From an uncultured virus (IMG/VR IMGVR_UViG_2100351003_000006) (lineage: Duplodnaviria; Heunggongvirae; Uroviricota; Caudoviricetes), in the IMG/VR virus record IMGVR_UViG_2100351003_000006: 58,153 bases of DNA, one strand, 5' to 3'. Made by a program: the position numbers and the translations under genes. Positions within the stretch are counted from its first letter, which is position 1; each line of letters starts with the position of its first letter. This document shows positions 2,178 through 56,328 of this stretch, in pieces. Below the pieces are notes generated by a model. It searched no databases, had not been told where the DNA came from, and was given only the letters and a program-made list of their open reading frames with translations.

Positions 2178-2420
2178 CCGCGTGGTCACTTTTCATCGGG
2201 GCACAACTGATGCAGGGCCGTCGCTACTGTGGGCTATGCCGCCTTCCGACCCAAACCCGTCTGATGACGTCTCCAAGTGCTACGGCGGCTTACCAATCCT
2301 CAAGCTGCCTTTCGCAGAACTTGAGGTCGGCCTCGTTCTTGGCCACAGCTGTCATTGGCTAACCTCACACATTTCGTCAGGAATGTGGCCGGATGCCGAC
2401 CTTGGCCGATACGACGTTTC

Positions 2421-6947: not shown

Positions 6948-7343
6948 TCAGCCCGCAGCACCAATTCCGAACTGCGCTCGCTGCCCAGACCATTCCACCG
7001 GAAATGGCAGCATCAAGTCCTTCAACGTCAGGCTCGCAGGCTGTTTGCCCGCCAAAATCGCTTCTACGATGTCTGGTGCCAACAACGCCAATCTGATCAC
7101 ACGACTCACGAACGAAGGTCCGATGCGCTCTGCTTTGGCGATTTCGTCCAGACACCCGTAGGTACCGTTCTCCAGCAGTTTCTGCCAGCGAAATGCCCGC
7201 GCGACCGCCTTGATCATGGTGTTGTCGATGGTCGCCATCGGCATCGGGTTGCCGTGCGTGCCATCGGGTAGAACGATCACCTTGCGCCCGCCACGCTTCT
7301 TGAAGGTCATTGGCAGATCAACAGAAATGACATCAGCAGCCAT
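6948..7343 (-). CDS. Small HTH-like protein typically following phage serine recombinase (possible accessory/directionality factor)
   Basis: MAADVISVDLPMTFKKRGGRKVIV...IKAVARAFRWQKLLE...VSRVIRLALLAPDIVEAIL; ATG overlaps the recombinase stop. Confidence 0.7.
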   Translation of the reverse strand: MAADVISVDLPMTFKKRGGRKVIVLPDGTHGNPMPMATIDNTMIKAVARAFRWQKLLENGTYGCLDEIAKAERIGPSFVSRVIRLALLAPDIVEAILAGKQPASLTLKDLMLPFPVEWSGQRAQFGIGAAG

Positions 7344-7714
7344 CACGCGGCCTTCCTCCCTGGCATGACCGACTGGATCAAGTCCCTCATGCCCGCCGCC
7401 TTCATGTCGATGCGTAGGCCGGTGGGGCTGACGGTCACCCTTTCCACCACGTAATTGAATGATCCTGGCCTGCTCGNNNNNNNNNNNNNNNNNNNNAGCC
7501 GCTGGATGCCAGGCCGATTGAGGGTGCCGCCCGAGAAGCCGCCATCGTTGTACGCGTCGTCGAGCGCTACCCAGCCTTCGGACTTCTGCGAGACGATGTA
7601 GGCCTCGCACGCATCGCGCTGGGCGTCGAGCGAGTTGTAGTTCTGCTCCAGCCCTTCCTCGGTGGATTTTCGGGTGTAGATCGCGCAGCGGAGTTTGCGC
7701 GTCATCGCGTTCAT
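7343..7714 (-). CDS. Large serine recombinase (resolvase-type catalytic domain), incomplete because of an assembly gap
   Basis: RCAIYTRKS catalytic Ser motif, SLDAQR, DGGFSGGTLNRPG; 20 N at 7477-7496; C-terminus EQARIIQL/VVERVTVS with a 1-nt frame slip beside the gap. Confidence 0.8.
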   Translation of the reverse strand: MNAMTRKLRCAIYTRKSTEEGLEQNYNSLDAQRDACEAYIVSQKSEGWVALDDAYNDGGFSGGTLNRPGIQRXXXXXXXXSRPGSFNYVVERVTVSPTGLRIDMKAAGMRDLIQSVMPGRKAA

Positions 7715-8151
7715 GCAGGCCTCCGTGCGCGCAGACCGAAGAACAACCAGCCATTCCAGACCGTGCCGGTGATCGCCTTGGCGATTGCAGAGAGTGATTG
7801 ATAGCGCTGGCCTTGGAACTCGAAATGGCCAAGCTGGACGATGACCTCGTAGGGCGTGCCCTGCCACTCGCGGATCAGCTTGGTGCCGGCGATAGGACGA
7901 TCATCAGCGCGGCGGCTGCGAACCCGCGCCTTGCCGCCGTCGAGTTGTTCACCAAGTTGTTCGAGGCGCTTGACCGTGCTGGTCTTCAGTCCGCCATGGG
8001 CGAGTTCCTGCAGGCGATAGGCGAGGCGATTCTCCAGGAAGCGCCGGTTGTACGGCGGCGGCTCCGTATCGAACAGGTCGCGCCACAGTTGCTTCAATTC
8101 GGGAATCGGGGTGGTCTTGAGGGCCACCACCCGGGCCAGTACGTCAGTCAT
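7711..8151 (-). CDS. DUF2924 domain protein
   Basis: LKQLWRDLF..PP..NRRFLENRLAYRLQE.AHGGL...GTKLIREWQG...SLSAIAKAITGT.WNGWLFFGL; coupled to the recombinase. Confidence 0.85.
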   Translation of the reverse strand: MTDVLARVVALKTTPIPELKQLWRDLFDTEPPPYNRRFLENRLAYRLQELAHGGLKTSTVKRLEQLGEQLDGGKARVRSRRADDRPIAGTKLIREWQGTPYEVIVQLGHFEFQGQRYQSLSAIAKAITGTVWNGWLFFGLRARRPA

Positions 8152-8183: not shown

Positions 8184-8213
8184 ATGAACGCGCTGTCCGG
8201 TGCGGCTATCAAG
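8184..8213 (-). promoter_or_regulatory. Copy of the 30-bp phage promoter-like motif upstream of the DUF2924-recombinase operon
   Basis: Minus strand CTTGATAGCCGCACCGGACAGCGCGTTCAT; same length and 3' half as the copies at 23.5-27.4 kb. Confidence 0.7.
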
Positions 8214-8450
8214 GGCTTTTTGACGCTCATGCAGGCGGAGTACGCCGTGCGCCAGTATTATTGCAATGATGCGAACAGGGTTGATGGGCGAGCTATTGCG
8301 AGAGTTGAGTTTGGCAGTCATGCATGTTTATACGGGGCCACCTCGGATTTCTTCTCAGCCGGCTTGAGAGGTCACGCCTACACGGCGGTGAGAGCCCATT
8401 TGGCCACAAAGGGCGTGCCGCAAGTCATCACAACAACAAGGAGAAATAGG

Positions 8451-10664
8451 GTGGCGAAGACCTTCAAGAACGGCATTTCATTGCATCGGCTGCTCGAGGC
8501 CGCGCCGCTGGCGGCACTGGCGACATTTCTTGAGACTGCCGACAAGGGTGACTACGCCGCCATCTTCTTCGAATTGCCATGGCAGACCGCCGGCGAGGAT
8601 AGCGGCAGCGCCGCCCTCCGCGAACAACTCATCGATCTGGGCAACGAACTCCAAGCCGACGCCGCCGTTCCTCTGGATCGCCACGCACAAAGGATCCTGA
8701 CCCTGGCGGAAGGTCGTGGTGTCGAACCCGTCAACCGGGTCGCTGCGAGAATCTTTGAGCAAGCGCATATCGATGCGTTTGACACGCAACTCGATGACCT
8801 CGGGCGCAGCCTATGGCTCTACCAGTACGAACCCGCGCTGTTCGACGAAGCCGAGAGCCTCTTCTATGCTGACCATTACCGCAACTTCGGCGGGATGTAC
8901 GAGGCCTTCGAGCTCGACGCCGACACAGTCGTGGCTTTCGTCTGGGACGACAGCGTCAAACACGCACTGGAAACCCAGATCCAAGAGCGCCTCGAACTGA
9001 CCGGGCGCTGCACGGTGACCCATCTGCAGGTTACAGGCAAGGACCAGGCTGGAAAGGAACAGCAGCAGCATCTGGTCATCGTTCGCCATGGCGGGCCGTT
9101 GTCCAGTGTGGCCGAGTTTCGGGAGGCCGATGGCAGCCGAGGGGATCGATACTACCGTCCGCTGAGCGAAGCGACCTTGCTGTTCTCGCCGGACGAGGGT
9201 GTTCTCGAAGTGTTCTCCGCTAGCCCGAGTGTACGCCAGCAGGTGGCCACCTGTTTCGCAGAAACAGGCCTCAAGATCGATCTGTCGGATAGACCTCTAA
9301 CCCTCAAGCAGTACAACTTCAAGCGCTTCTTGACCTCGCTGAACCTGAGCACACCCACTATCGCTGGGTTCGATGTCGATCGGGTCGCAGTGGTGGAAGT
9401 CGACGTGCGCCCGGACAACCCCAAACATCGCGCTGGCCTCAAGGTCAGCATCAGCGATGATATCGAGGACGTGGCCGAGGCGTTGTTCGGCAAGGATCAC
9501 TTGTTCAAGCGGGCCGCCAGCCTCGCTCGGATCGTCATCGCCGTGCGTTACACCCAGTACGGCACCAAGAAATCCAAAACGCTCAACATCACCCTTTCGG
9601 AACCGAATCGATGCAATCTGCGCAGCAACCGGGATCCGGTACAGCGGGAGTTGGGCTACGCCCTTCTGACGGCCTGGGGCGTCCTACATCAGGTCAAGCC
9701 GCTCACGCTGGTTCAGGAACACGTTCTACTTCCGGCACTGCTGCAGTTATTTGATCAGACCAAAAAGGAGGTGCCAGGGCAGTTCTTCCTCACCCGCGGA
9801 CTCGATCCCGAGGCGCTGCTGGATGGCGGCTTTATCGAACCGCGTGGCCGCTACGTCAGCTTGTTGCTGGACGAGGATGGCACTACTCACGAGGTCAACG
9901 TCCGTTCGGCAGGTAAGCCCGGCGTGATCGCCTACGACCATCCGAAGGACGGGAGCACTGTCGAATTGCCAGCGTCGGCTGCCGACAAATACGCGATCAG
10001 GCGGGACTGGCTCGATGAGATCGTCCTCAAACGCCTCAAGGCGCCCCTGGTCAGTGCCGAGTTGATCAAACTTGACGAAAACCTCACCTACCTCGGCAAG
10101 ATCAAGCTCGGGGCAGAAGCTGCGCCTTGCTACCTGGCTCGTGATCTAAGGTCGCCGACGACCCTGCAGCGTCTCGATATCCTGATGCGTGCCCGAAGCG
10201 ACAAAGGCGTGGGCCTGGTGCTCTCGGCAGGTCGAGACCACCCCTTATGCCTGGGGCCGAACGTTATCGCAGCGGTAGCCGATCACTTGGCCACCAGTGA
10301 TCAGGAGTCGTCCCTCGACATCAACAGGCTGGCAAGCGTTTTCACGCAGGGCAAGCAACTGGCGCGCGGCGGAATGGTCGTAGCTCTGGTCAAGAAGGAC
10401 AACTACAGTGCGACGCTCTACATCCCCGGCAAACCGTCACTCGCGTTGGTCGGAGTCAAAGCGATCGGCTTTTTCCAGGCCCTGGTCGATGCCTATCACA
10501 AGGGATCACCTGCCGTGCCTACCAAGCAGTTGATGAGTGCTGCGGGATCCTTGTCGCCCAGCCCGCGCCAGCTCTTGGGCAACGAGTTCTGGTCATCCGT
10601 CGAGGTCGTTTACGTGGGATTTCCACCCGGGGTCAAGCGAGGCAGCTACCAGTTGCTGGTGTAG
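8451..10664 (+). CDS. Large uncharacterised phage protein (737 aa), possible C-terminal winged-helix
   Basis: Long open frame; GTG at 8451 preceded by AAGGAG; followed by an intrinsic terminator. Confidence 0.8.
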   Translation: MAKTFKNGISLHRLLEAAPLAALATFLETADKGDYAAIFFELPWQTAGEDSGSAALREQLIDLGNELQADAAVPLDRHAQRILTLAEGRGVEPVNRVAARIFEQAHIDAFDTQLDDLGRSLWLYQYEPALFDEAESLFYADHYRNFGGMYEAFELDADTVVAFVWDDSVKHALETQIQERLELTGRCTVTHLQVTGKDQAGKEQQQHLVIVRHGGPLSSVAEFREADGSRGDRYYRPLSEATLLFSPDEGVLEVFSASPSVRQQVATCFAETGLKIDLSDRPLTLKQYNFKRFLTSLNLSTPTIAGFDVDRVAVVEVDVRPDNPKHRAGLKVSISDDIEDVAEALFGKDHLFKRAASLARIVIAVRYTQYGTKKSKTLNITLSEPNRCNLRSNRDPVQRELGYALLTAWGVLHQVKPLTLVQEHVLLPALLQLFDQTKKEVPGQFFLTRGLDPEALLDGGFIEPRGRYVSLLLDEDGTTHEVNVRSAGKPGVIAYDHPKDGSTVELPASAADKYAIRRDWLDEIVLKRLKAPLVSAELIKLDENLTYLGKIKLGAEAAPCYLARDLRSPTTLQRLDILMRARSDKGVGLVLSAGRDHPLCLGPNVIAAVADHLATSDQESSLDINRLASVFTQGKQLARGGMVVALVKKDNYSATLYIPGKPSLALVGVKAIGFFQALVDAYHKGSPAVPTKQLMSAAGSLSPSPRQLLGNEFWSSVEVVYVGFPPGVKRGSYQLLV

Positions 10665-10720: not shown

Positions 10721-10857
10721 GTGCCTGCGGGATTCAAGCCAAGCAGCGCCGATCTGGGTGCCGAGCGCCATCTCACTTACGTCTCAATTAACGGCGTAGA
10801 GCATCTCACGTCCCGTGAGAAGAATGGGTAACTCCTAAACGAACAAGGAGTTACACC

Positions 10858-11421
10858 GTGCCACTCGATAGCACTTACTTCAAATCGGCCATCAATGCGG
10901 CGGCCGCCAGAGCATACCAGATGGCAACCCGCTTCGGACTCTCGCACGCCGACCGGGAGGATCTCCACCAGGAACTGCTGCTCGACCTGCTGGAGCGTGC
11001 CGAACAGTTCGACCCAGACAAAGGCAGCGCCGGGACCTTTACCGGAATGCTCTCCAAGCATCGGGCGTCTGAGTTCCTGTACCGACTAACGAAGGACCGT
11101 TGGCGTCTGAGTTTTTGCTCCGGGAATGAGCCGGACGAGGGCGCGACAGATCCTCTCGATGCACTGGCGGACACCGACGCCGTGCTCCCCCAGTGGGGCG
11201 AAGTCACCAACGGCTTTGACGAACTTCATTTCGCTCGCGACCTCGACCACGCCCTCAGCCGGATGGACGACGAGCAGCGAGCGCTGTTCTCCCTGCTCCT
11301 TGAGCATCAGGACACGCCCAGCGCCTGCGAGGCGTCCAGCGTTTCGTCCGCCACTTTCTACCGCCGCCTCACCGATCTGAAGATGCATCTGCGCATGTTC
11401 GGCATTAAGGCGGCGGCCTGA
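10858..11421 (+). CDS. Sigma-70/ECF-like factor (region 2 + region 4 HTH)
   Basis: DREDLHQELLLDLLERAEQFDPDKGS.GTF (region 2-like); LDHALSRMDDEQR...VSSATFYRRL (region 4); AAGGAG RBS. Confidence 0.7.
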   Translation: MPLDSTYFKSAINAAAARAYQMATRFGLSHADREDLHQELLLDLLERAEQFDPDKGSAGTFTGMLSKHRASEFLYRLTKDRWRLSFCSGNEPDEGATDPLDALADTDAVLPQWGEVTNGFDELHFARDLDHALSRMDDEQRALFSLLLEHQDTPSACEASSVSSATFYRRLTDLKMHLRMFGIKAAA

Positions 11422-18985: not shown

Positions 18986-19109
18986 CGTAGTCCCGTTCTT
19001 GCTCTGACCCGTACCCGATCCCGATCGGGCATGAGGGAGCGCCGAAGACCCTGACCCGGTCGCGTGCACGCTCCTCCAGGCCGCCACTAGCCTTTTGGAG
19101 GATTTGCAC

Positions 19110-19619
19110 ATGTCCCACCACCCCACAACGCAGCCAGCGGCTTCTGCCGCCGCCCTCCCTGGCGCTACGCTCGCTCTCGATCTCGGCCAGCACACCGGCT
19201 GGGCGCTGGCCTATCCACGCGGTCCCATCACCTCGGGTACCGAGACCTTCAAAGCGGGCCGCTTCGAGGGCGGCGGCATGCCGCTGCTGCGCTTCGCCGC
19301 GTGGCTTGACGAATTGCAGGCCAAGGCCGGTCCGCTGACCGCCGTCGTGTTCGAGGAAGTGCGCGCGCACCGAGGCACGGCGGCGGCCCACACCTACGGC
19401 GCCTTCCTCGGGCAACTGACCGCGTGGTGCGAGCTCCACCAGGTGCCCTACCAGGGCGTGCCGGTCGGCACGATCAAGAAGCACGCGACCGGACGCGGCA
19501 ATGCCGGCAAGGACGAGGTGATCGCGGCGATGCGCGCCAAGGGTTTTTATCCCGCCGACGACAACGAAGCGGATGCGCTGGCGCTTCTGCAATGGGTGCT
19601 GAAAGGGGGTGCACGATGA
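19110..19619 (+). CDS. RuvC-like Holliday junction resolvase
   Basis: LALDLGQHTGWA, VVFEEV, IKKHATGRGNAGK, DDNEADALALL. Confidence 0.8.
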   Translation: MSHHPTTQPAASAAALPGATLALDLGQHTGWALAYPRGPITSGTETFKAGRFEGGGMPLLRFAAWLDELQAKAGPLTAVVFEEVRAHRGTAAAHTYGAFLGQLTAWCELHQVPYQGVPVGTIKKHATGRGNAGKDEVIAAMRAKGFYPADDNEADALALLQWVLKGGAR

Positions 19620-20412: not shown

Positions 20413-20492
20413 CAAAAGCGCCTGCCGATCCTCCTCGCCGCAGGCGTTTTTGCATTCTGGCTCGACTTGACCCGCCCCGGTGGCGGGTTTTT
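20413..20492 (+). terminator. Two tandem intrinsic terminator hairpins after the late promoter
   Basis: aaaagcgcctgc...gcaggcgttttt (20413-20452) and acccgcc-ccggt-ggcgggttttt (20470-20492). Confidence 0.65.
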
Positions 20493-20530
20493 GCTTTCAG
20501 CGCCGCACCCTCCTGGAACTCCCGAACACC

Positions 20531-21937
20531 ATGCTCAACGTCGAGTACCGCAAGGTCGAGACGCTGATTCCCTGCGCCCGGAATCCGCGTACCCACAACG
20601 CCGAGCAGGTGGCCAAGATCGCCGCCAGCATCGTCGAGTACGGGTGGACCAACCCGATCCTGGTCGATGGCGACAACGGTATCGTCGCCGGTCACGGCCG
20701 GCTCGCCGCGGCGCGCAAGCTGAACCTGGACGATGTGCCGGTCATCGAACTGGCCCACCTCACGCCAACCCAGAAGCGCGCCTATCTCATCGCGGACAAC
20801 CGCATGGCGCTGGATGCCGGCTGGGACGACGCCATGCTGGCGCTGGAACTCGAAGACCTGAAGCTGGCCGACTTCGATCTCTCGTTGACCGGATTCGACG
20901 CCGACGAGATCGAGGCCTTGCTGGCTGACAGTCACACCGACGCAGAGCAGCCGGGCGATGGCAACCCGCCCGATGCCGCCGACGATGTGCCCGAGGTTCC
21001 GGCCAATCCCGTATCTCGTCCCGGCGACGTGTGGGCCTTGGGTCAGCATCGCCTGATCTGCGGTGACGCCGCTGACTCTGCCGTGATCACGACGCTGATG
21101 GCCGACGAGCAAGCCAACCTGCTGTTCACCAGCCCGCCATACGCCAACCAGCGCGCCTACACAACCGGTGGCATCGCCGACTGGGATCGCTTGATGCAGG
21201 GCGTCTTCGCCCTGGCGATGACCGTGATGGCCAGCGCGGCACAGATGCTGGTCAACCTCGGCCTGGTCCATCGCGAAGGCACCGTGGTGCGCTACTGGGA
21301 CGAATGGCTCACCTGGATGCCGCGCCAGGGTTGGCGCTTCTTCGGCTGGTACGTCTGGGACCAGGGCGTGACCGTTCCTGGCGATTGGGCCGGCCGACTC
21401 GCACCGCGCCACGAGTTCCTCTTCCACTTCAATCGCGAGGCGCGGAAGCCGAACAAGATCGTACCGTGCAAGTTCGCGGGTCAGGACAAGCATCTGCAGG
21501 CCGACGGCAGCAGCAGCGGCGGGCTGCGTACCAGGGAAGGCGAGCGTACCGGCTGGAACCATGCCGGCAAAGTGACGCAGGAGTTTCGCATTCCGGACTC
21601 GGTGGTGACCGCTACCCGCCAGCGCGGATCGATCGGCGAGGGGATCGACCACCCCGCCGTCTTCCCCATCGCCCTTCCGGAGTTCATCCTCGAGGCCTAC
21701 TCCGACACCGGCGACCTCGTCTTCGAGCCCTTCTGCGGTTCAGGAACGACGATGCTCGCGGCACAGCGTACCGGCCGCATCGCCCGCTCGGTCGAGATTG
21801 CCCCCGAGTACGTCGATGTGGCGATCAAGCGCTTCCAGCAGAATTTTGCCGGCGTGCCGGTGACGCTCGTGGCCACCGGCCAGACGTTTGACGAGGTCGC
21901 CGACGAACGACTGGGGAGCGACGATGCTGACCGTTGA
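20531..21937 (+). CDS. ParB-like N-terminal domain + DNA methyltransferase (SPPY, likely m4C)
   Basis: NPRTH...VAGHGRLAAA..ADNR; FTSPPY; HPAVFP; EPFCGSGTT. Confidence 0.9.
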   Translation: MLNVEYRKVETLIPCARNPRTHNAEQVAKIAASIVEYGWTNPILVDGDNGIVAGHGRLAAARKLNLDDVPVIELAHLTPTQKRAYLIADNRMALDAGWDDAMLALELEDLKLADFDLSLTGFDADEIEALLADSHTDAEQPGDGNPPDAADDVPEVPANPVSRPGDVWALGQHRLICGDAADSAVITTLMADEQANLLFTSPPYANQRAYTTGGIADWDRLMQGVFALAMTVMASAAQMLVNLGLVHREGTVVRYWDEWLTWMPRQGWRFFGWYVWDQGVTVPGDWAGRLAPRHEFLFHFNREARKPNKIVPCKFAGQDKHLQADGSSSGGLRTREGERTGWNHAGKVTQEFRIPDSVVTATRQRGSIGEGIDHPAVFPIALPEFILEAYSDTGDLVFEPFCGSGTTMLAAQRTGRIARSVEIAPEYVDVAIKRFQQNFAGVPVTLVATGQTFDEVADERLGSDDADR

Positions 21938-23183
21938 GCAGTGGCCGATCGACCGCCTGATCGAGTACGCGCGCAACCCTCGCAAGAACGATCATGCCGT
22001 CGACCAGATGGCCGCCGCCATCCAGGAGTTCGGCTTTCGGATCCCCTGTGTCGCCCAGTCCGATGGGCGCCTGGTCGATGGTCACCTGCGCCTGAAGGCG
22101 GCGCGCAAGCTCGGGCTCGACACGGTGCCGGTGATCCTCGCCGACGACCTGACGCCGACGCAGATCAAGGCCTTTCGTCTGCTGGCCAACCGCTCGGCGA
22201 CCTGGGCCGAGTGGGACGAGGATCTGCTGCGCCTCGAACTCGATGAGCTGAAGCTCGACGACTTCGATCTGACACTGACCGGCTTCGATGCCGACCAGCT
22301 GCTGGAAATCATGACCGGCGAGGAGACGACTGCGGCGGGGAACACCGAAGACGACGCCGTGCCGGACGTGCCGGAAACGCCGGTGTCGCGACTGGGTGAT
22401 GTGTGGGTGCTCGGCAAGCACCGGCTGCTGTGCGGGGATGCTACACACGAGGACAGCTATCAGGCACTACTCGGCACCGATCACGTGTCGATGCTCTGGC
22501 AGGACCCGCCGTACAACGTGAACTACGCCAACAGCGCGAAGGACAAAGTGCGCGGCAAGAATCGCGCGATCATCAACGACAACCTGGGTGACGGGTTCCA
22601 CGATTTCCTGGTGGCGGCCCTCACCCCGGCGCTGACGCGCTGCAATGGCGCGGTCTACATCGCGATGTCCTCCAGCGAGCTCGACGTGCTGCAGTCAGCG
22701 TTCCGCGCCGCGGGTGGCCACTGGTCGACCTTCATCATCTGGGCGAAGAACACCTTCACGCTGGGCCGCGCCGACTATCAGCGCCAGTACGAGCCGATGC
22801 TCTACGGTTGGCCCGAGGGCGGCAAGCGCCACTGGTGCGGCGACCGTGATCAAGGCGACGTGTGGCAGATCAAGAAGCCCGTCAAGAACGATCTCCATCC
22901 GACGATGAAGCCCGTGGAACTCGTCGAGCGCGCGATTCGCAATTCGAGCCACCCGGGCGATACGGTGCTCGATTGCTTCGGCGGCTCCGGTACCACGCTG
23001 ATCGCCGCCGAGAAGGCGGGACGGCAAGCACGGTTGATGGAACTGGACTCCAAGTACGTCGATACCATCGTTCGCCGCTGGCAGGACTACACCGGCAAAA
23101 ACGCCACCCGGGAGTCGGATGGCGTTGAGTTTGATGCGGTGTTGGGTCAGGCCGAGAGTGCTTCCTCGGAGATTGCGCAGTGA
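21924..23183 (+). CDS. ParB-like N-terminal domain + DNA methyltransferase (DPPY, likely m6A)
   Basis: VDGHLRLKAA; QDPPYNV; HPTMKP; DCFGGSGTT. Confidence 0.9.
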   Translation: MLTVEQWPIDRLIEYARNPRKNDHAVDQMAAAIQEFGFRIPCVAQSDGRLVDGHLRLKAARKLGLDTVPVILADDLTPTQIKAFRLLANRSATWAEWDEDLLRLELDELKLDDFDLTLTGFDADQLLEIMTGEETTAAGNTEDDAVPDVPETPVSRLGDVWVLGKHRLLCGDATHEDSYQALLGTDHVSMLWQDPPYNVNYANSAKDKVRGKNRAIINDNLGDGFHDFLVAALTPALTRCNGAVYIAMSSSELDVLQSAFRAAGGHWSTFIIWAKNTFTLGRADYQRQYEPMLYGWPEGGKRHWCGDRDQGDVWQIKKPVKNDLHPTMKPVELVERAIRNSSHPGDTVLDCFGGSGTTLIAAEKAGRQARLMELDSKYVDTIVRRWQDYTGKNATRESDGVEFDAVLGQAESASSEIAQ

Positions 23184-23527
23184 ATTACAAACCCCGTCAG
23201 GTAGGGTAAGCCTTGCGGGATGCCGGAGTCTTTGCTGGTCCGGCGGTTGATCGTCCAGCCCATCCATTGGGTGATGGCGGCGTGAATCGCCTGCTCGACG
23301 TGCTTGCCGACCAGCATCTGGTTGCGGACATCATCAGAAAAGTGTCGTCCGTGGCGGCTGTCGAGGAAGAGCCTGACCGATTCGAGAGGCTCGCCGGTAG
23401 CGTTGGAGATTGCGGTCATGGCCAAAAGCCATGCGACTTCGGCATTGTCCTGCATGCCGCCGTAGAAGCCCCAGGCTTCGTTCTCGGTGGCGGGGATCGG
23501 GTTGGCGATGGTGTTGGCGGTGGTCAT
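23147..23527 (-). CDS. Hypothetical protein (cassette 8 of the minus-strand array)
   Basis: GGGAG RBS, own promoter copy at 23561; WGFYG and FLDSRHGRHF.DD motifs. Confidence 0.75.
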   Translation of the reverse strand: MTTANTIANPIPATENEAWGFYGGMQDNAEVAWLLAMTAISNATGEPLESVRLFLDSRHGRHFSDDVRNQMLVGKHVEQAIHAAITQWMGWTINRRTSKDSGIPQGLPYLTGFVIHCAISEEALSA

Positions 23528-23618
23528 GGTGTTTCTCCCGTTTGCGTTGATGACAGAGACATGATTGCTCTACCACGAACACAAGCCAAGTGCTTTCTCA
23601 ATCATTTTGGCAACGCTT

Positions 23619-23870
23619 TCAGTCTTCCCAAATGGACGTTGCGTCGCGTGCAATCCCGATGCGCGCCCGGTCGTCGTCGCTTGCTGCTTCGAGCACCGCG
23701 CTGCCTGTTTTCGTGTTGACGCCCGCTTTGCCGGTGGCACAGAAAGTCTTGCCGTCGTGGATGATGATGCTCGGCGCCGCCTTGCTGAACTCGATCTGGA
23801 TGCTCATCATGCCGCGGTTGCGACCGTTGGTATCGGTCACGTTGGTCTGGGGGGTGGTCTTGGCGGTCAT
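23619..23870 (-). CDS. Hypothetical protein, 83 aa (cassette 7)
   Basis: GAGGAG RBS, promoter copy at 23907. Confidence 0.7.
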   Translation of the reverse strand: MTAKTTPQTNVTDTNGRNRGMMSIQIEFSKAAPSIIIHDGKTFCATGKAGVNTKTGSAVLEAASDDDRARIGIARDATSIWED

Positions 23871-24036
23871 GGCATGCTCCTCGGGGTAGTTGGCTGCGAC
23901 ACCCGTATGAACGCGCTGTTTGATTGACAAGGCAAGCGCGTTCTCAATCATCGCGGGCCCATGGCGCCTTGGCTTGCACAGACGCGCCGTGTGGCGTCGT
24001 CGTGTCGCCGGCGAGTCCTTGCTTGCCGACGCCGAT

Positions 24037-24416
24037 TCAGCACCACGTCACGCCAGACCGCAGTTCGTGGGCAATCGCCAGCAGGTGAAAGACTTCCTTG
24101 AGGCGCCGGACGACACCCTCCTGGTCGATGCCCGGGTCGATGACGCGAACGCCCCGCTGGATGGTCGGCTGGCCGTCGATCTCAACGATGCGGGTCGGCC
24201 CGCTCTCGTCGGTCGGTGCGACGGTCTGGATACCCCAGGCCTGATGCAACGCCCGGATGGCCCGTTGACGCAGGCGCGGTAGTTCGGCGAAGTCGATCTC
24301 GCCGTAACCCTCGGAGGTGTCGATGCCCAGCGCGCCCAGCACGATGGCCGCATTGCGATTGTGGAGTAGTTGACCTCGGTTTCGGGCTGCTGGTCGATGC
24401 GGATGGTAATGCTCAT
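24037..24416 (-). pseudogene. Hypothetical protein with frameshift near 24361 (cassette 6)
   Basis: MSITIRIDQQPETEVNYS switches frame to NRNAAIVLGALG...GVTWC; GGGAG RBS and promoter copy at 24454. Confidence 0.65.
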
Positions 24417-24530
24417 GGTGTGGCTCCCTGGCGTGGTTGGTGGCGACACCTCGATGAACGCGCTGTTTGATTGAGAAGCCAAGCGCCACGACGATCATTC
24501 GCGTGACCCGACGTCTGGTTCGAGATGGCC

Positions 24531-24758
24531 TCAACCCTGGCTGTCGAGTTGGAAACTGCCCGGGCCGTTGCCTTCGTCGTCGGCGAGGAAGATGAGGGTT
24601 CGCTTCTGCCCGTTGGGCAAGGTAATGACCAGACCGAAGAATTCGTCGCCGCACTCGTCGACGCCGGTCCGGGCAAGGTTGGTGATGGTGCCGCCCAACA
24701 GCGGGCGCAGTTGCTGGAGATGGAAGTCGACGACGGAGGGTGGGGTGCTGGTGGTCAT
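24531..24758 (-). CDS. Hypothetical protein, 75 aa (cassette 5, no own promoter copy)
   Basis: AAAGGAG RBS; C-terminal DDEGNGPG motif. Confidence 0.7.
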   Translation of the reverse strand: MTTSTPPSVVDFHLQQLRPLLGGTITNLARTGVDECGDEFFGLVITLPNGQKRTLIFLADDEGNGPGSFQLDSQG

Positions 24759-24806
24759 GACAGACTCCTTTGGTGTACTAGTGGACGACGGGTGCTGGTC
24801 ATCGGT

Positions 24807-25079
24807 TTAGGCGCCCCGCAGGACAGTGATGCCGGCCTGCGCCAGGGTCAACGCGGCGCTCGCGAAGATCGTCTCGGCCATCCCGGGGCACGCCTGGGTG
24901 TCGTCGAGCAATTCGTCGACGACTTCGCGAGACCTGGCGCGCATCGCCACGAGTGCCGCCTCGCGCAGTTCGTGGCTGGCGGTCCTGATCTCCGGGCAGA
25001 GCCGGATCAGCGTGGTGAGGGCGGCGGTGGCGAGTTGGTTGCCGAGGGTATCCAGGCTGCTGGTTTGGGTCGGGGTCAT
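24807..25079 (-). CDS. Hypothetical helical protein, 90 aa (cassette 4)
   Basis: AGGAG RBS, promoter copy at 25112. Confidence 0.7.
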   Translation of the reverse strand: MTPTQTSSLDTLGNQLATAALTTLIRLCPEIRTASHELREAALVAMRARSREVVDELLDDTQACPGMAETIFASAALTLAQAGITVLRGA

Positions 25080-25295
25080 GGCGGGCTCCTGCGGTGGTTG
25101 ATGACGATCGTATGAACGCGCTGTTCGCTGCTGAAGCCAAGCGGAATCACAATCTTCGTCGGCTGGCCCCTGGCGTCGTGACGCTCGCCACCTCCTCGGC
25201 GTTGGCCCTGCGGGTTGCACGGCCGCGCCGTGTGGCGCTTCGACGCCGCCGGTTGACTACTTGGTGCACCGCGCCAGTTCCGGCGCCCAGACGCC

Positions 25296-25318
25296 AAAAC
25301 GCCCGGTGGCCCGGGCGT
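25296..25318 (-). terminator. Intrinsic terminator, repeated at 26446-26465
   Basis: acgcccgg-4 nt-ccgggcgt hairpin followed by a T run on the minus strand. Confidence 0.7.
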
Positions 25319-25337
25319 CTGGCGAGATGGTTGGCGG

Positions 25338-26327
25338 CTAGGCCACCAATTTCTCCGCCAGCTGGTACGCGTGATCCTTGAACCGGGCGCCCGGGCCAAA
25401 CCAGGCGGCGTTCAACCGGTTGTCCTGGAGGCGGCCCTTCTCGTGGTCGATGTACTCGGTGGTGGCGTTGAGCAGACCCCACAGGGTCTGGTCGGTCGCG
25501 TCCTGGTGGCCGCCGATCATCTCGCCGGCAAAGAGTTCGAGGATGCGGCGGTAGCCCTTGGACTTCCTGACCTGCTCAGGCGTGTAACTCTGCCCGTAGG
25601 GCATGAAGGGCTGGAACAAGTCCTGCAGCCAGCCATCGGTTTCGAGATCGGTCAGTTTCCGGCCGGCCATCAGCCCGGCCTTCTGCTGGAACTCGTCCCA
25701 TGCGTCCAGCGCGATGCCCAGGTCCGCCCGGACCGCTTTGGCATCGAAGATCGCCTGGTGCGAGATCGTCACCTGACGCTGCGCATCCCGGTTGCGCAGG
25801 GAGGCCTGCAGCGTGTTGTTGCACACGACCCGAATCGTCGTAAACCGCGCCACGGTCGCCATCGTGCCGTCGTAGGAGGTCGCCAGCAGCAGGTAGGGCG
25901 CGACTTCGTCGTCCAGGATGCGGGCGTTCTTGCCAACGCGCCCCAGTGCCCAGATGCGCCGGCCATTCATCAGAGCGCCGACGGTCTCGATGCGGAACTG
26001 CTTGGCCTCGGCCAACGCACCGAAGAAGTTGAGAATGTCCGCCGGCTGGACCACCTGGTAGTCGGACGAGACGACCGACAAGGGTGCGCCACAGTCGCTG
26101 CGGTACAGCACGTGCTTGTCGGCAAAGGACTCGCGCTGGTTCGTGACGGTGCTGTCGAACTGGACCTCGGCCTTGAGGGCGCGCCATTCGAGCTGCGCGG
26201 CCTTCTGCCAGACCTCGACGCTGGCCTCGGGATCGACCGTTTGCCCGAGCCCGTGCCAGGGGACATCGGTGTCCGTGGCGTAGGCGATGGCGGCTTGGCC
26301 GGTGGTGAAGTCGATCTGGTGTGCCAT
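25338..26327 (-). CDS. DUF932 domain protein (cassette 3)
   Basis: PWHGLG, LSVVS.DYQVVQP, YLLLATSYDGT, IRVVCNNTL, TLWGLLNATTEYIDH. Confidence 0.9.
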   Translation of the reverse strand: MAHQIDFTTGQAAIAYATDTDVPWHGLGQTVDPEASVEVWQKAAQLEWRALKAEVQFDSTVTNQRESFADKHVLYRSDCGAPLSVVSSDYQVVQPADILNFFGALAEAKQFRIETVGALMNGRRIWALGRVGKNARILDDEVAPYLLLATSYDGTMATVARFTTIRVVCNNTLQASLRNRDAQRQVTISHQAIFDAKAVRADLGIALDAWDEFQQKAGLMAGRKLTDLETDGWLQDLFQPFMPYGQSYTPEQVRKSKGYRRILELFAGEMIGGHQDATDQTLWGLLNATTEYIDHEKGRLQDNRLNAAWFGPGARFKDHAYQLAEKLVA

Positions 26328-26484
26328 GGTGTTTCTCCTTCGTGGTGTGGTTGATGACGATCATATGAACGCGCTGTGCCCAACACAAGCCAAGCGATTT
26401 TTTAGTCCTCTGTCGTTTATCTTCGCCGTGGCTCCAAACGCAAGAACGCCCGGTGGCCCGGGCGTCTGGTGATGCTGTGGCGAC

Positions 26485-26676
26485 TCACACCATGTGGCGT
26501 GGGTCGCCGGTCAGGATTTCGAGCCAGTCCATGACGTAGTGCTCGCCGGAGACGCCTTGGGTGCGCACCTGGCGCACGCGCTTCATGGTGAGATTCCACT
26601 CCTCGGCAATGCCGCGGATCGTCTTGTGATGCTTGCGCATGAGGTGCTGGATGGTTTGGGCGCTGAGGGTGTTCAT
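26485..26676 (-). CDS. Small HTH-like protein, 63 aa (cassette 2)
   Basis: TIRGIAEEWNLTMKRVRQVR helix-turn-helix pattern; AGGAG RBS; promoter copy at 26709. Confidence 0.7.
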   Translation of the reverse strand: MNTLSAQTIQHLMRKHHKTIRGIAEEWNLTMKRVRQVRTQGVSGEHYVMDWLEILTGDPRHMV

Positions 26677-26793
26677 GGTGGTCTCCTGCTGGCGTTGATG
26701 ACGATCGTATGAACGCGCTGTCTGGCGCCGAAGCCAAGCTTTTCGTCAATCTTTTTCGGGGCGGCTGGATGTTTCCAACCACCCCTTCGGTGA

Positions 26794-27315
26794 CTACCCA
26801 ATGTGGTAGATGCGCTCACCACCCTGGGGTTTCTCCGAGGTGATGGTCAGCCCGAGCTTCTTCTTGAACGCGCCGGCAAACGCGCCTCGCACGGTGTGCG
26901 ACTGCCAGCCGGTGGATGCGCAAATTTGCGCAATTGTCGCGCCCTCGGGGCGTTTGAGCAGGGCGATCACCGCCGCCTGCTTGCTGTTCTCGCGGGTGCG
27001 GGGTTTCACCGTCGTCGCTTGCTTCTCGGCCACCCATTGCGCCTCGGTGGCCGCCAGGGCGGCTTCGACCTCCGGGTCGGGATGCGTGGTCGGCAGTGCC
27101 GGCGGGGTGCGCCCCAGGGCGTCGTAGCCAACCGGCGAGATGAACCAGTCAGCGTCGCTGCCGGTGATGAGGGCTTTGTTGCAGAGGCCCTCGATCACCT
27201 TCTTGCGGGCGCCGCCCTTGACGTTGTCGGGGAACCAATTGACACGGCCATCGGGTTGCTCGGCAGCCTGTTCGAGGACCAGGCGCTGGGTGTCGGTGAG
27301 TGCGGTGCGGGTCAT
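26794..27315 (-). CDS. DUF3489 domain (winged-helix) protein (cassette 1)
   Basis: RENSKQAAVIALLKRPEGATIAQI...TGWQSHTVRG...KKKLGL...RIY; AAGGAG RBS; promoter copy at 27350. Confidence 0.88.
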   Translation of the reverse strand: MTRTALTDTQRLVLEQAAEQPDGRVNWFPDNVKGGARKKVIEGLCNKALITGSDADWFISPVGYDALGRTPPALPTTHPDPEVEAALAATEAQWVAEKQATTVKPRTRENSKQAAVIALLKRPEGATIAQICASTGWQSHTVRGAFAGAFKKKLGLTITSEKPQGGERIYHIG

Positions 27316-27402
27316 GGCGATCTCCTTGATCGGGGTTGATGACGAGCACATGAACGCGCTGTTCAATCACGAAGCCAAGTCCTGCCAACCAGAAAGACGC
27401 GA

Positions 27403-27801
27403 ATGCCCTTGCGTGCCCCGACTCCCTGCCGACACCCGGGTTGCGGTGCGGTGCTGACCACACCCGGCTATTGCGACGCGCACCGTGCCGATCACCGGCA
27501 GTGGGACAGCAATACGGGGAAGAGGAAGCGACAAGAGAAACGTGCCCTGCCCACAAACAGCGCCGCGTGGCGAGGCCTGCGCGCTCGGCTTCTGCGTGAG
27601 GCACCGCTATGTCAGGAGTGCCTGCGGCTCGGTGTCTTGTGCGCCGCCAGCGTCGTCGATCACATCGATGGCGATAGCCACAATAACGACCGATCGAATC
27701 TGCAGTCGCTCTGCAGTCGCTGCCACGCCAGAGTCACGGCGAGGCACGACGGCGGCTTTGGCAACCCTAACCGGCGTCGCCAAGCGGACCGAGACTGCTG
27801 A
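27403..27801 (+). CDS. HNH endonuclease (terminase-associated)
   Basis: PCRHPGC...YCDAH; PLCQEC; VVDHIDG..NN..NLQSLCSRCH; upstream of terS. Confidence 0.9.
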   Translation: MPLRAPTPCRHPGCGAVLTTPGYCDAHRADHRQWDSNTGKRKRQEKRALPTNSAAWRGLRARLLREAPLCQECLRLGVLCAASVVDHIDGDSHNNDRSNLQSLCSRCHARVTARHDGGFGNPNRRRQADRDC

Positions 27802-27960
27802 GCGTGTCAGCGTCGGTCGATGGCCACTCGATGTCCGGCTGCGCACGAACGAAGCAAGGCCAGATCATTCGCTCATCATCACATTATACGTTCAGCATGC
27901 GCGGAAAATGCCACTTGTGTAGATATGGAAGTCCAGCTTCGCGAAATGACTCGGCTGCAG

Positions 27961-28052
27961 GCCCCTAGGGGCCTAGGTTCTCTACAATGGCATATGCTGG
28001 ATGCGTGCGCGTGGTCAATTTTTTGTGCGTGCAAATTAGAAAACTTTTTTTG
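27961..28052. other. Putative cos/packaging site region
   Basis: Non-coding gap between HNH and terS with a CCCCTAGGGG palindrome, repeated TGCGTGC and T-tracts; position typical of HK97-like cos phages. Confidence 0.45.
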
Positions 28053-28172
28053 GCGGAAAATAGCGCTTGAGCATTGATTTCATTGAGGTTTTTGGCAAAT
28101 CGAGAGGTGCCAAATCCGGCTCGATTTCGGCCGAAATCGGTGCGAAAGGGCCATTTCGCGGGGTGATTTCGT

Positions 28173-28643
28173 ATGGCCGCTCCCGGACGTAAGCCCCTGC
28201 CCGTGGTCGTGAAAGAGATCAAGGGGACGCTGCAGAAGTGCCGGACCAACGTGCGCGAACCGAAACCGACGACGGCCTTGTGCACCCCGCCCGAGTACAT
28301 GTCGGACAGCGCCAAGGAAGCGTGGAACTACGCGGTGGCCAATTCACCACCCGGTTTGCTGTCGGCGCTCGACGGCGCGGTGCTAGAGCGCTGGGCGAAC
28401 TGCTCGGGGATGTACCGCGAAGCACTCTCCAAGATCAACAAGGCCGGGGTCTCCGGGATGATGATCAAAACGCCCAGCGGCATCCTTCGGCGCTCACCCT
28501 TGATGGATGTGATCAGGGATCTGGCGCTGGAGATGAAGGGCTACGAGGCCGAGATGGGATTCACTCCGGCGGCGCGCTCACGCATCTCACTGCCGACGGA
28601 ATCGACGACCGAGTCGGATCCGTGGTCGGAGATTGCCGGCTGA
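28173..28643 (+). CDS. terS: Terminase small subunit, P27 family
   Basis: GRKPLP..K..GT; PPEYMS..AK..W; EMGFTPAARSRI. Confidence 0.9.
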   Translation: MAAPGRKPLPVVVKEIKGTLQKCRTNVREPKPTTALCTPPEYMSDSAKEAWNYAVANSPPGLLSALDGAVLERWANCSGMYREALSKINKAGVSGMMIKTPSGILRRSPLMDVIRDLALEMKGYEAEMGFTPAARSRISLPTESTTESDPWSEIAG

Positions 28644-30355
28644 TGGCCACTCGCAGCTACACCACGATCGCCCGTCAGTACGCCAAGGCCGTCGTCACCG
28701 GCAGGGTTCTGACCGGCAAGTGGGTGCGCGAGGCCTGCCAGCGGCAACTCGACGATCTGGCGCGCTTCACGGGCAGAGACAGTCCCTACCGCTTCAACCC
28801 GACGCTGACCGACAAGCTGGGGCGCAGTTTTCGGCCTGCCGACAACCTGTGTGCCTTCATCGAGCGCCTGCCGCACGTCAAGGGGCCACTGGCGGGACAG
28901 CCGATCCGACTGGAGCCCTGGCAGGTGTTCATCCTGACCACCGTCTTCGGCTGGGTGAAGCCTGACGGCAAGCGGCGCTTTCGCCGCGCCTATATCGAAG
29001 TGCCGCGCGGCAATGCGAAATCGACACTTTCCTCCGCCCTGGCCCTGTACATGCTCGCCGCCGACGGTGAAGGCGGCGCCGAGGTGTATTCGCTGGCCAC
29101 CACCCGCGACCAGGCGCGTATCGTCTTCGGCGATGCGCAGACGATGGCGCGCCAGTCGGCCGGGTTTCGGACACGCTTCGGAGTGGGCGTCGGTGCGCAC
29201 AACCTGCACGTACTGGCCAGAGGCTCGAAGTTCGAGGCGCTCTCCGCGGAAGGCTCGACGCTCGACGGGCTGAACATTCACTTCGGCTGCATCGACGAGT
29301 TGCACGCGCACAAGACGCGCACCGTCTACGACGTCGTCGAGACCGGCACCGGCAAGCGCGACAACTCGCTCTTGTGGGTGATCACCACCGCCGGCAGCAA
29401 CCGCTCGGGGATCTGCTACGAGATCCGGACCTTCGTCACCCGCCTGCTCGACGGCGTGTTCGCGGACGACAGCCAATTTGGCATCGTGTACGGGCTCGAT
29501 GACGGGGACGACTGGACGCTCGAAGAGTCGCTGATCAAGGCCAATCCGAACTGGGGTATTTCGGTGCGCCCGGAAGTGCTGGCGCCGCTGCAGGCCAAGG
29601 CCATGCAGATGCCGAGCGCGGTGAACAACTTCAAGACCAAGCATCTCAACGAGTGGGTCAATGCGGACACCGCGTGGATGGACATGCGCTCCTGGGATCG
29701 CTGCGCCGACCAAGGGCTTGATATCGACTCCTATGCGGGACAGCCGTGCTGGATCGGCCTCGATCTGGCCAGCAAGACCGACATCGCTGCCCTGCTGCTG
29801 GTCTTCGCCCACCAGGAAATCGACGGCGGCTTTGCAGTGTTCGGTCGCTACTACCTGCCCGAGGACACGGTTCACGCCACCGGCAACAGCCAGTACCCCG
29901 GCTGGATGGGCAGCGGGCGGCTGACGGTGACGCCGGGCAACGTGATTGATTTCTCCTGGATCGAGGCCGACCTGGTGGACTTCGCCTCGCGCTTCGCCAT
30001 CCAGGCGGTCGCCTTCGACCCGTTCCAGGCGACGCAGTTGTCGACCCGGATGCTGGCTGAGGGCCTACCGATGATCGAAGTCAGACCGACAGTGCTCAAC
30101 TTCTCGGAACCGATGAAGACGCTCGAGGCGCTGGTCCTGCAAGGAAAACTGATCCACGACGGGGATCCGGTGCTGGGGTGGATGGTGAGCAACGTCGTGG
30201 CGCACCTGGACGCCAAGGACAACATCTACCCGCGCAAGGAACGTCCAGAGAACAAGATCGACGGCATCGTCGCACTGATCATGGCACTGTCGCGGGCGAT
30301 CACGCCCGGCACCCAGGTGGTGCTCGGTGCAGACTACGAGCTGGTGATGCTCTGA
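28643..30355 (+). CDS. terL: Terminase large subunit
   Basis: LEPWQ, VPRGNAKS, IDELHAH, ITTAG, GLDLASKTD, KIDGIVA. Confidence 0.95.
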   Translation: MATRSYTTIARQYAKAVVTGRVLTGKWVREACQRQLDDLARFTGRDSPYRFNPTLTDKLGRSFRPADNLCAFIERLPHVKGPLAGQPIRLEPWQVFILTTVFGWVKPDGKRRFRRAYIEVPRGNAKSTLSSALALYMLAADGEGGAEVYSLATTRDQARIVFGDAQTMARQSAGFRTRFGVGVGAHNLHVLARGSKFEALSAEGSTLDGLNIHFGCIDELHAHKTRTVYDVVETGTGKRDNSLLWVITTAGSNRSGICYEIRTFVTRLLDGVFADDSQFGIVYGLDDGDDWTLEESLIKANPNWGISVRPEVLAPLQAKAMQMPSAVNNFKTKHLNEWVNADTAWMDMRSWDRCADQGLDIDSYAGQPCWIGLDLASKTDIAALLLVFAHQEIDGGFAVFGRYYLPEDTVHATGNSQYPGWMGSGRLTVTPGNVIDFSWIEADLVDFASRFAIQAVAFDPFQATQLSTRMLAEGLPMIEVRPTVLNFSEPMKTLEALVLQGKLIHDGDPVLGWMVSNVVAHLDAKDNIYPRKERPENKIDGIVALIMALSRAITPGTQVVLGADYELVML

Positions 30356-55971: not shown

Positions 55972-55986
55972 ATAGGAGGAAAAAAA

Positions 55987-56328
55987 ATGGGAATGCCAAT
56001 GTTGATGTATGGAGTTGCTTTGAACGAAGCAATCGCTCGAGGAAATCTCTCTGAGATGCGCGACCTGGTTGCTGTAAGTACTTTTCTCAAGCGTACGCAG
56101 TTAGACGACTTGGAGTCAGATGAAGCCAAGGAATGGGAAGAGGCTCACAAACAGCTGGTCACTGCTATCTCAGAGAAAGAGTCAATTAAGTTGGCAAAAG
56201 AGGACATAATTGCAATTCGGGACGGCATTGTTGTTCTAGACAGCATAGCCATGGCGCGAGTTCTCAAGACGCTGCTGACTTCCGATACTGAGGGTCCGTA
56301 CATGAAGATTAGCTTTGGTTGGGACTGA
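55987..56328 (+). CDS. DUF1843-like protein with Y-X10-G(N/D)L motif
   Basis: MYGVALNEAIARGNLSEMRDL; AGGAGG RBS. Confidence 0.8.
   Translation: MGMPMLMYGVALNEAIARGNLSEMRDLVAVSTFLKRTQLDDLESDEAKEWEEAHKQLVTAISEKESIKLAKEDIIAIRDGIVVLDSIAMARVLKTLLTSDTEGPYMKISFGWD

Follow-up and report, generated by a model that had tools for sequence, protein, structure and literature searches.

A repeated promoter-like block precedes exchangeable accessory genes and the integrase operon in a family of temperate phages

In phage lambda, the CII-dependent promoters pI, pRE and paQ have weak cores and couple the integrase to establishment functions through one phage DNA-binding protein. The morons of lambdoid prophages, extra genes of undefined or host-directed function expressed from the prophage, stand behind unrelated promoters and carry their own terminators, and in the kor regulon of IncP plasmids the kle operons are placed under shared operator-bearing promoters. 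In lytic T4-type myoviruses, promoter-early stem-loops (PeSLs) are conserved blocks repeated in hyperplastic regions of non-essential genes, each block consists of a strong sigma-70-like promoter and a terminator stem-loop, and recombination between copies leads to gene insertion, deletion and replacement between close relatives (PMC2839356). The anti-defence islands in plasmid leading regions have repeated Frpo promoters, and Frpo is a single-strand promoter whose long hairpin mimics duplex -35 and -10 boxes (PMC11541004). Here we analyze IMG/VR record IMGVR_UViG_2100351003_000006, a stretch of 58,153 nucleotides from an uncultured virus of the Caudoviricetes (the whole stretch is called the window below), in which a block of two boxes, CTTGGCTT-N9-ACAGCGCGTTCAT, recurs in front of small genes. 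The reading that we favor, and hold to be somewhat more probable than not, is that the block is a promoter/operator specific to this phage family, which places accessory cassettes and the integrase operon under common control and doubles as a recombination seam.

The prophage within the window extends over roughly 6-50 kb, and the array consists of eight small open reading frames (ORFs) on the minus strand at 23147-27379, between methylase and HNH genes. A scan of the array gave six minus-strand matches to CTTGGCTT-N9-ACAGCGCGTTCAT with 0-1 mismatch, where 0.00 were expected from 100 shuffles. These matches and two further copies are as follows:

27350-27379, minus strand: block copy P1, CTTGGCTT-N9-ACAGCGCGTTCAT, before orf1; 0 mismatches, ATG 35 nt after CAT
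26709-26738, minus strand: block copy P2, before orf2; 0 mismatches
26365-26394, minus strand: block copy P3, before orf3; 0 mismatches
25112-25141, minus strand: block copy P4, before orf4 and orf5; 0 mismatches
24454-24483, minus strand: block copy P6, before orf6; 0 mismatches
23907-23936, minus strand: block copy P7, before orf7; 1 mismatch, CTTGCCTT
23561-23590, minus strand: diverged copy P8, before orf8, CTTGGCTT-N9-GTAGAGCAATCAT (TTGGCT-17-AATCAT); from reading of the sequence
8184-8213, minus strand: eighth copy, CTTGATAG-N9-ACAGCGCGTTCAT, before the DUF2924/serine-recombinase operon; outside the array range

P8 keeps the first box, the spacing and TCAT, its second box being GTAGAGCAATCAT, and the copy at 8184-8213 stands 32 nt upstream of the DUF2924 start. 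Downstream of the motif come 6 nt, then GTCATCAAC (orf1-4, orf8) or GTCGC..CAAC (orf6, orf7), a GGAG-type ribosome-binding site (RBS) and ATG. The whole putative promoter-leader block thus defined measures about 75 bp: CGCTTGGCTTC is followed by a variable stretch of 7 bases, then by AACAGCGCGTTCAT, a further 6 bases, a CA-rich leader, GGAG and ATG (often ATGACC). ATGACC(ACC) opens many cassette ORFs (Met-Thr-Thr...), for example those starting at 23527, 23870, 24758, 25079 and 27315, and these shared starts indicate that the conserved block reaches into the first codons. An earlier note on this DNA had described eight mutually unrelated small genes running antisense to the late operon, seven of them behind the motif, as self-contained cassettes. 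The observation is borne out. The eight minus-strand ORFs do fall in different BLAST clusters; the first box and the geometry are present seven times, the whole motif six times; orf5 is without a block of its own; and, as terminator-like hairpins are found at two junctions only, the cassettes are self-contained only in part.

The conservation of the block was examined in a comparison set that included the nearest genome, G001, and viral records. Among the matches listed, the exact pattern was found in over 143 stretches from species-representative genomes and in over 158 viral contigs. Block-bearing records carry the names of Rhodocyclaceae, Burkholderiales, Lysobacterales/Xanthomonas, some Alphaproteobacteria and Candidatus Nitrospira defluvii, and they usually hold 1-7 copies on the same strand, clustered in prophages. 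An RBS and a start codon opening an ORF of at least 35 aa were present within 120 nt in 364 of the 403 unique instances, with the start 30-37 nt after CAT in 300 of these 364 and 34-36 nt after it in 212. Counted by mismatch, there were 380 unique sites with none, 42 with one, 51 with two and 12 with three, and the reversed control gave no site with up to 4; GTTACT instead of GTTCAT was a recurrent variant.

As an unbiased set, regions upstream of DUF3489 homologues were picked by protein similarity alone (52-94% amino acid identity). The 71 unique regions comprised 60 with the exact 21 fixed bases, 4 with one mismatch and 7 without the motif, and the homologues of these last 7 sit directly behind another gene. 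A logo built from 63 such regions shows no variation in CGCTTGGCTTC and AACAGCGCGTTCAT, whereas the stretch of 7 bases that separates the two differs, as do the flanks; this supports the proposal of the earlier note that the motif is under selection, and the selection is strong. Among relatives with protein identities of only 52-65%, about 24 block positions do not vary, and this exceeds what sigma-70 recognition explains. In a sample of 151 genomes of the order, the motif was present in 17, clustered, as against none of the 151 for the reversed control, and in G001, a 5-Mb genome, all 9 matches lie in two prophage contigs. The clustering and the empty control show that this is not a motif of the host chromosome, and the promoter-like class that had been proposed from the window is indeed a distinct one.

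The genes that stand behind the block in the window are listed here:

26794-27315, minus strand: orf1, 173 aa, two winged-helix domains and a variable linker, C-terminal DUF3489 (Pfam PF11994, 1.1e-32; phrog_10315)
26485-26676, minus strand: orf2, 63 aa, no Pfam or PHROG match
25338-26327, minus strand: orf3, 329 aa, DUF932/TIGR03299 phage/plasmid-like protein, by profile matches
24807-25079, minus strand: orf4, 90 aa, PHROG match to phrog_36268
24531-24758, minus strand: orf5, 75 aa, own RBS, no own block here; BLAST cluster 18
24037-24416, minus strand: orf6, frame broken by a 2-nt insertion at about 24361-24362; cluster 12, intact relatives of about 124 aa
23619-23870, minus strand: orf7, 83 aa, no family; cluster 4, with 18 members behind the motif
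23147-23527, minus strand: orf8, 126 aa, phrog_8020; in relatives usually the last cassette, adjoining the methylase genes

All eight of these families were also found behind the motif elsewhere, orf5 among them, whose family has its own block in other phages (L218/L325). Clustering of the 287 complete ORFs behind the block gave 39 clusters, 16 of which were singletons, with matches that include DUF6900, DUF3489, DUF932, DUF2924, HTH_17 and kleA_kleC; the profile scan covered 26 of the 39 cluster representatives, with six window members scanned separately and seven spurious-looking singletons omitted. The largest clusters were those of DUF6900 (66 members) and DUF3489 (62), followed by the families of orf8 (20), of 119-aa proteins (19), of orf7 (18) and of orf4 (15). 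When the genes were read as motif-to-gene strings, 90 different strings were obtained, in which content and order vary between relatives; a frequent backbone runs from DUF6900 through DUF3489, a variable part and the 119-aa family to orf8. Two rearrangements could be followed at the nucleotide level. Contig C36 of G001, a second prophage, is 96% identical to the window on both sides, running along positions 26706-28874 and then resuming at 23957-23519; it is without orf2-orf6, and a stretch of 54 nt that includes the motif can be aligned with either junction. An orf4-less variant appears in contigs from three RNA-library runs, in which 24759 is joined to 25093 and orf5 stands directly behind the orf4 leader. 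The ends of the cassette indels fall inside the block. Cassette content and order, compared across related prophages, are not fixed. The 90 gene strings and the positions of the indel ends bear out an array that can expand, as the earlier note had supposed, and that is shuffled.

The eighth copy connects the block with a further operon:

7343-8151, minus strand: DUF2924 gene (7711-8151), then a broken serine-recombinase remnant (7343-7867), by profile matches

The remnant (7343-7867, minus strand) is a partial Resolvase split over two frames, and relatives have an intact enzyme of 473 aa; the prophage may be unable to excise, or there may be assembly errors at the recombinase. The block precedes DUF2924 in the relatives G003, G013 and G016 as well, and in G013 an intact large serine recombinase follows (L318:9380-10801). 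In G005 and G013 a 96-aa gene at another place also stands behind it, and G003 has a second array of six copies on the opposite strand. The class had been thought special to this array, and in this respect the earlier interpretation has to be given up, given the copies before the integrase operon and before single genes elsewhere in relatives; what stands of it is a promoter-like class of its own and an expandable array. We propose that the block class, in its presumed role as promoter, also governs the integrase operon, so that it marks a regulon rather than the array alone. On the plus strand, an ORF of 826 aa without a Pfam or NCBIfam match occupies 8184-10664, with its 5' end overlapping the DUF2924 promoter block; a relative that is 29% identical is encoded in G013. 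The string GCTTGGCTT at 10736-10744 was rejected as a block copy and belongs to a plus-strand terminator region.

A copy at the recombinase operon, copies bounding every cassette and indel ends inside the block are also what would be expected of integron-like sites for site-specific recombination, run by the DUF2924/serine recombinase, with the promoter look being secondary. We regard this as very improbable, since the block is without dyad symmetry, its distance to the RBS and start codon is fixed, which recombination does not need, and the recombinase of the window is broken while the array is intact. Given the shared 54-nt homology, the C36 indels are explicable by ordinary homologous recombination.

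The two boxes were then compared with known promoter elements. TTGGCT agrees with the sigma-70 hexamer TTGACA in 4 of 6 positions, every copy has a spacer of 17, within the canonical 16-18, and natural variants nearer to the consensus occur at unchanged spacing (the DUF2924 copy has TTGATA, the orf8 copy AATCAT). A canonical -10 box has A at position 2 and T at position 6, whereas GTTCAT and the frequent GTTACT carry T at position 2, and only the orf8 copy with its AATCAT fits; without this A, the block is not a canonical sigma-70 promoter. The patterns of sigma-54, sigma-32 and the LexA box were compared by eye and were rejected, as the spacings do not fit. The first box of P7 is flanked by the inverted repeat TGATTGA...TCAATCA. 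Inside the orf7 and orf6 blocks there are good sigma-70-like sites on the plus strand, at 23924-23951 (TTGACA-16-AATCAT) and 24471-24498 (TTGAGA-16-GATCAT), which arise because the inverted repeat ATTGA...TCAAT surrounds the first box; these opposite-strand sites could be operators or antisense promoters.

It is conceivable that the copies are plain host sigma-70 promoters of moron-type genes, expressed from the prophage with no phage factor, and that the block owes its conservation to its spread by recombination. The 17-bp spacer, the first box with its 4 of 6 matches and the variants nearing the consensus are all consistent with this, the presence of the block in several classes of hosts, and also in the record of a Nitrospira chromosome, favors universal machinery, and four RNA-library runs, each from a different study, include contigs with the array. 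We nevertheless think it doubtful. No standard copy has A at -10 position 2, about 24 invariant positions at 52-65% protein identity go beyond the needs of sigma-70, terminators, which belong to the definition of a moron, are rare, and a block shared with the integrase operon fits a switched class better than constitutive expression. A phage factor probably takes part in reading the block.

The RNA-library data that contain the array are contigs, from which starts, strand and level are not derivable. In X1 an exact contig has its end at 26344, some 14 nt inward of the start expected for orf3, an end that, in a contig, cannot show a start; over about 26345-27227, where orf2 and most of orf1 lie, X1 is without cover, and its contig depths, which cannot rank genes, are 21.7-46.5 over orf8-orf3 as against 2.9-3.8 for short contigs of the methylase genes. 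Terminator-like hairpins are present at two of the seven junctions in the window:

26445-26466, minus strand: terminator-like hairpin GACGCCCGGGCCACCGGGCGTT with a T-rich tail, after orf2, by terminator scan
25298-25319, minus strand: the same 22-nt hairpin with a weaker T tail, after orf3, by reading of the sequence and uncalled by the scan

RNA-library contigs that bridge several cassettes (25096-27128), the small number of terminators between cassettes and the CA-rich leaders could point to a single long array transcript in which the repeats are processing, stability or translation-enhancer elements. This RNA-level explanation has, in our estimate, very little probability. The seven blocks fold no better than shuffles (z -0.48 to +1.62 with RNA parameters) and have no common structure, and a search of 22500-28500 against Rfam, with E up to 1, returned only a chance SgrS row. 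In addition, two boxes with a variable spacer are a pattern of DNA recognition, and single copies stand before isolated genes and the integrase operon. With neither excess folding nor an Rfam family, the signal is best taken as one that is read as duplex DNA.

As to the factor that may read it, the window itself encodes a sigma factor:

10858-11421, plus strand: ECF-like sigma factor (Sigma70_r2/ECF-type), at the head of the prophage replication module

Promoters of this class follow the pattern GGAAC-N16/17-CGTT. A block read by this protein would have two boxes, as observed, and the CGTT inside GCGCGTTCAT resembles the ECF -10 core; yet a homologue of the sigma factor, or any PF04542 match, was found in only 1 of the 26 motif-bearing viral records and in neither of the two that are at least 90% complete. 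Because it is present in a single record of the 26, the prophage's ECF-like sigma is not the general reader of the motif, and as a general mechanism this explanation is already largely refuted and hardly to be credited.

By comparison, orf1 is the gene with the best association: PF11994, its DUF3489 family, was found in 21 of these 26 records, including both that are at least 90% complete. In the order sample (n=151) the motif and DUF3489 occurred together in 13 genomes, the motif only in 4 (all with one mismatch), DUF3489 only in 6 and neither in 128; these counts are not a statistical test, since kin are not independent. An AF2 model of orf1 (pLDDT 82.5) has two winged-helix domains, and Foldseek against the PDB gave weak winged-helix rows only (best E 0.03); a search for a solved-structure sequence relative of orf1/DUF3489 found none. 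Going by this model, the tandem winged-helix DUF3489 protein would fit a DNA-binding regulator of two boxes and is a candidate for that role.

The reading that we favor can be put as follows. One regulon, switched by the same block, would comprise the DUF2924/serine-integrase operon together with the accessory cassettes, host RNA polymerase using TTGGCT-17-GTTCAT as a deliberately weak core of sigma-70 type and the extra invariant bases forming the site of a phage-encoded regulator. The best candidate for this regulator would be the DUF3489 protein of the first cassette, which itself stands behind the block. Transcription would start at or near the G of GTC, giving an unstructured, CA-rich leader, and would presumably be timed to entry or establishment; some of the cargo might act against host defences. 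As regions of shared homology, the block copies would at the same time be the places where related phages lose, gain and swap cassettes. A stronger form of the proposal is a private promoter, in which DUF3489 would be a phage specificity factor that host RNA polymerase needs in order to read the block, its two DNA-binding domains, joined by a flexible linker, matching the two invariant boxes. We consider that form unlikely; if it were true, a self-contained and self-amplifying regulon would extend across Beta-, Gamma- and Alphaproteobacteria and Nitrospira, and the integrase and swappable entry-phase genes would be switched on independently of host promoter rules.

Several points weigh against a block that is read by a phage regulator. 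The boxes are non-palindromic, unlike typical dimeric regulator sites, and a sigma-70 consensus scan calls none of the block copies. As regards the candidate, the five motif-bearing records without PF11994 are fragments that are 37-64% complete, and the association of DUF3489 with the motif may only reflect the commonest cassette. In the wider DUF3489 family, taken from 301 genomes of the phylum, the motif (with up to 3 mismatches) was present at 2 of 30 fetched loci, L405 and L406, and gp32, the homologue in phage AcaML1, has no motif despite the same gene layout. Some RNA-library contigs run through block copies (25096-27128; 27099-27381 in X4), which read-through transcripts or DNA carry-over may explain. 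Lastly, hairpins were not enriched upstream of the copies in relatives by a crude criterion (6/273 vs 21/273 in the coding control), and with hairpins so rare there most of the 'cassettes' are not closed transcription units.

The array occupies a constant place between other modules of the prophage, which are these:

plus strand: replication module, in the order AAA_24 protein, DUF669, PD-(D/E)XK nuclease, helicase, primase-polymerase
20480-23183, plus strand: two genes for ParB_N + N6_N4 DNA methyltransferases (Pfam), convergent with the array, with the same neighbors in relatives
27403-30355, plus strand: HNH endonuclease gene and the genes of both terminase subunits (small, large), divergent from the array, by profile matches

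The packaging and structural genes follow on the plus strand in the order HNH, small and large terminase, portal, S49 protease and capsid, then RcGTA-like tail genes. In the four large relatives G003, G005, G013 and G016 methylases are likewise followed by a minus-strand array and then by packaging genes, and the position beside the packaging genes to which the earlier note had drawn attention is retained: the slot between methylase and packaging genes is kept in 4 of 4 near-complete relatives and in AcaML1. Judged by the HNH-terminase gene order and by HK97/lambda biology, the array may lie near the last-packaged DNA end. The last array gene, orf8, and the second methylase gene are convergent and overlap by 37 nt at 23147-23183, so that transcripts reading through from the array would run antisense to the methylase operon. 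A family-less protein of 174 aa (19095-19619, plus strand) is 63-67% identical in three of the four large relatives, above the conservation of most neighbors, and is a possible regulator. Adjoining the prophage, 2421-4673 on the minus strand encodes a protein of 750 aa that combines an Mrr-like nuclease domain with an nSTAND3 NTPase; the gene lies within a low-GC stretch (47.7% GC at 2001-4000) and looks like a defence gene. Outside the prophage, at 54526-57514 on the plus strand, a subtilase gene lies beside that of a radical SAM/SPASM enzyme, and the pair may be a peptide-maturation locus.

These phages are a temperate family with HK97-type packaging and RcGTA-like tail genes, widespread and essentially unstudied, and AcaML1 is their distant cultured relative. 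Among cultured or deposited phages the orf1 family was found only in AcaML1 (three records) and in two UNVERIFIED Ralstonia phage records, one of which has six block copies; prophages on Ralstonia megaplasmids also encode the family. A literature search gave no match for the motif strings, DUF3489 was met in one paper only, a general DUF survey, and searches that combined DUF932 with phage promoter, leading-region or anti-defence themes gave nothing on the motif.

The cassette families with profile matches are mostly DUFs (DUF3489, DUF932, DUF6900, DUF2924). orf2 may be a small HTH protein, a lead that comes from Atlas feature matches (scores 0.93-0.96) to small clusters of Cro/C1 and HTH_3 type, and orf8, with Atlas scores of at most 0.81, gave no functional lead. 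The 2-nt insertion in orf6 is absent from the near-identical contig C50 of G001, from an Azonexus contig of a metagenome-assembled genome (L018) and from contigs of 4 RNA-library runs, where the gap falls at 24360, and orf6 is either a pseudogene or an assembly error. PADLOC found no match for the eight window ORFs and one weak match (E 0.004) among 13 cluster representatives. The role in host takeover or anti-defence that the earlier note had proposed for the array thus gains no direct support from the families identified.

If the regulon is real, hundreds of uncultured prophages of wastewater, soil and plant-associated Proteobacteria share a transcription signal conserved at the nucleotide level. 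That signal would mark the points at which accessory genes are plugged in and exchanged, tying their expression to integration, and it would offer a sequence handle for variable cargo, a natural place in which to seek counter-defence or host-modifying genes. DUF3489 would then be a candidate new phage regulator.

Set beside the known systems, the block resembles each in part. Integrons have promoterless cassettes that end in palindromic attC sites, and a tyrosine integrase, whereas here the repeat lies 5' of the genes at promoter distance, is unstructured and is accompanied by a recombinase of serine type. With the IncP kor regulon the array has in common many small-gene operons under one signal and a kleA_kleC Pfam match in one cassette family; no Kor homologue was identified here, and the Kor operators are palindromes of different sequence. 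Like the anti-defence islands with Frpo, it combines orphan methyltransferases with small uncharacterized genes behind repeated promoters or promoter-like blocks of a special kind, on DNA that may be the first to enter, but the blocks here are without excess structure in an RNA-parameter fold, and none of the known anti-defence families was met in the PADLOC and profile scans. As with morons, extra genes lie between conserved phage modules, each behind a promoter (here a promoter-like block), with the difference that a single invariant block is shared and terminators are mostly missing. With the lambda CII promoters it shares a scattered class with weak cores that couples int to other functions, although dependence on an activator is here a supposition; the differences are that there is no CII homologue and no TTGC-N6-TTGC repeat, that the copies are far more numerous and that the cargo is swappable. 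The likeness to PeSLs lies in a block within a variable region of accessory genes and in indels that arise by recombination between copies, and the differences lie in the non-canonical -10 box, the rarity of stem-loops, the temperate phages that carry the block and its presence before the integrase operon. If our reading is correct, this array would be an equivalent, among temperate phages, of the modular shuffling that the PeSL model describes.

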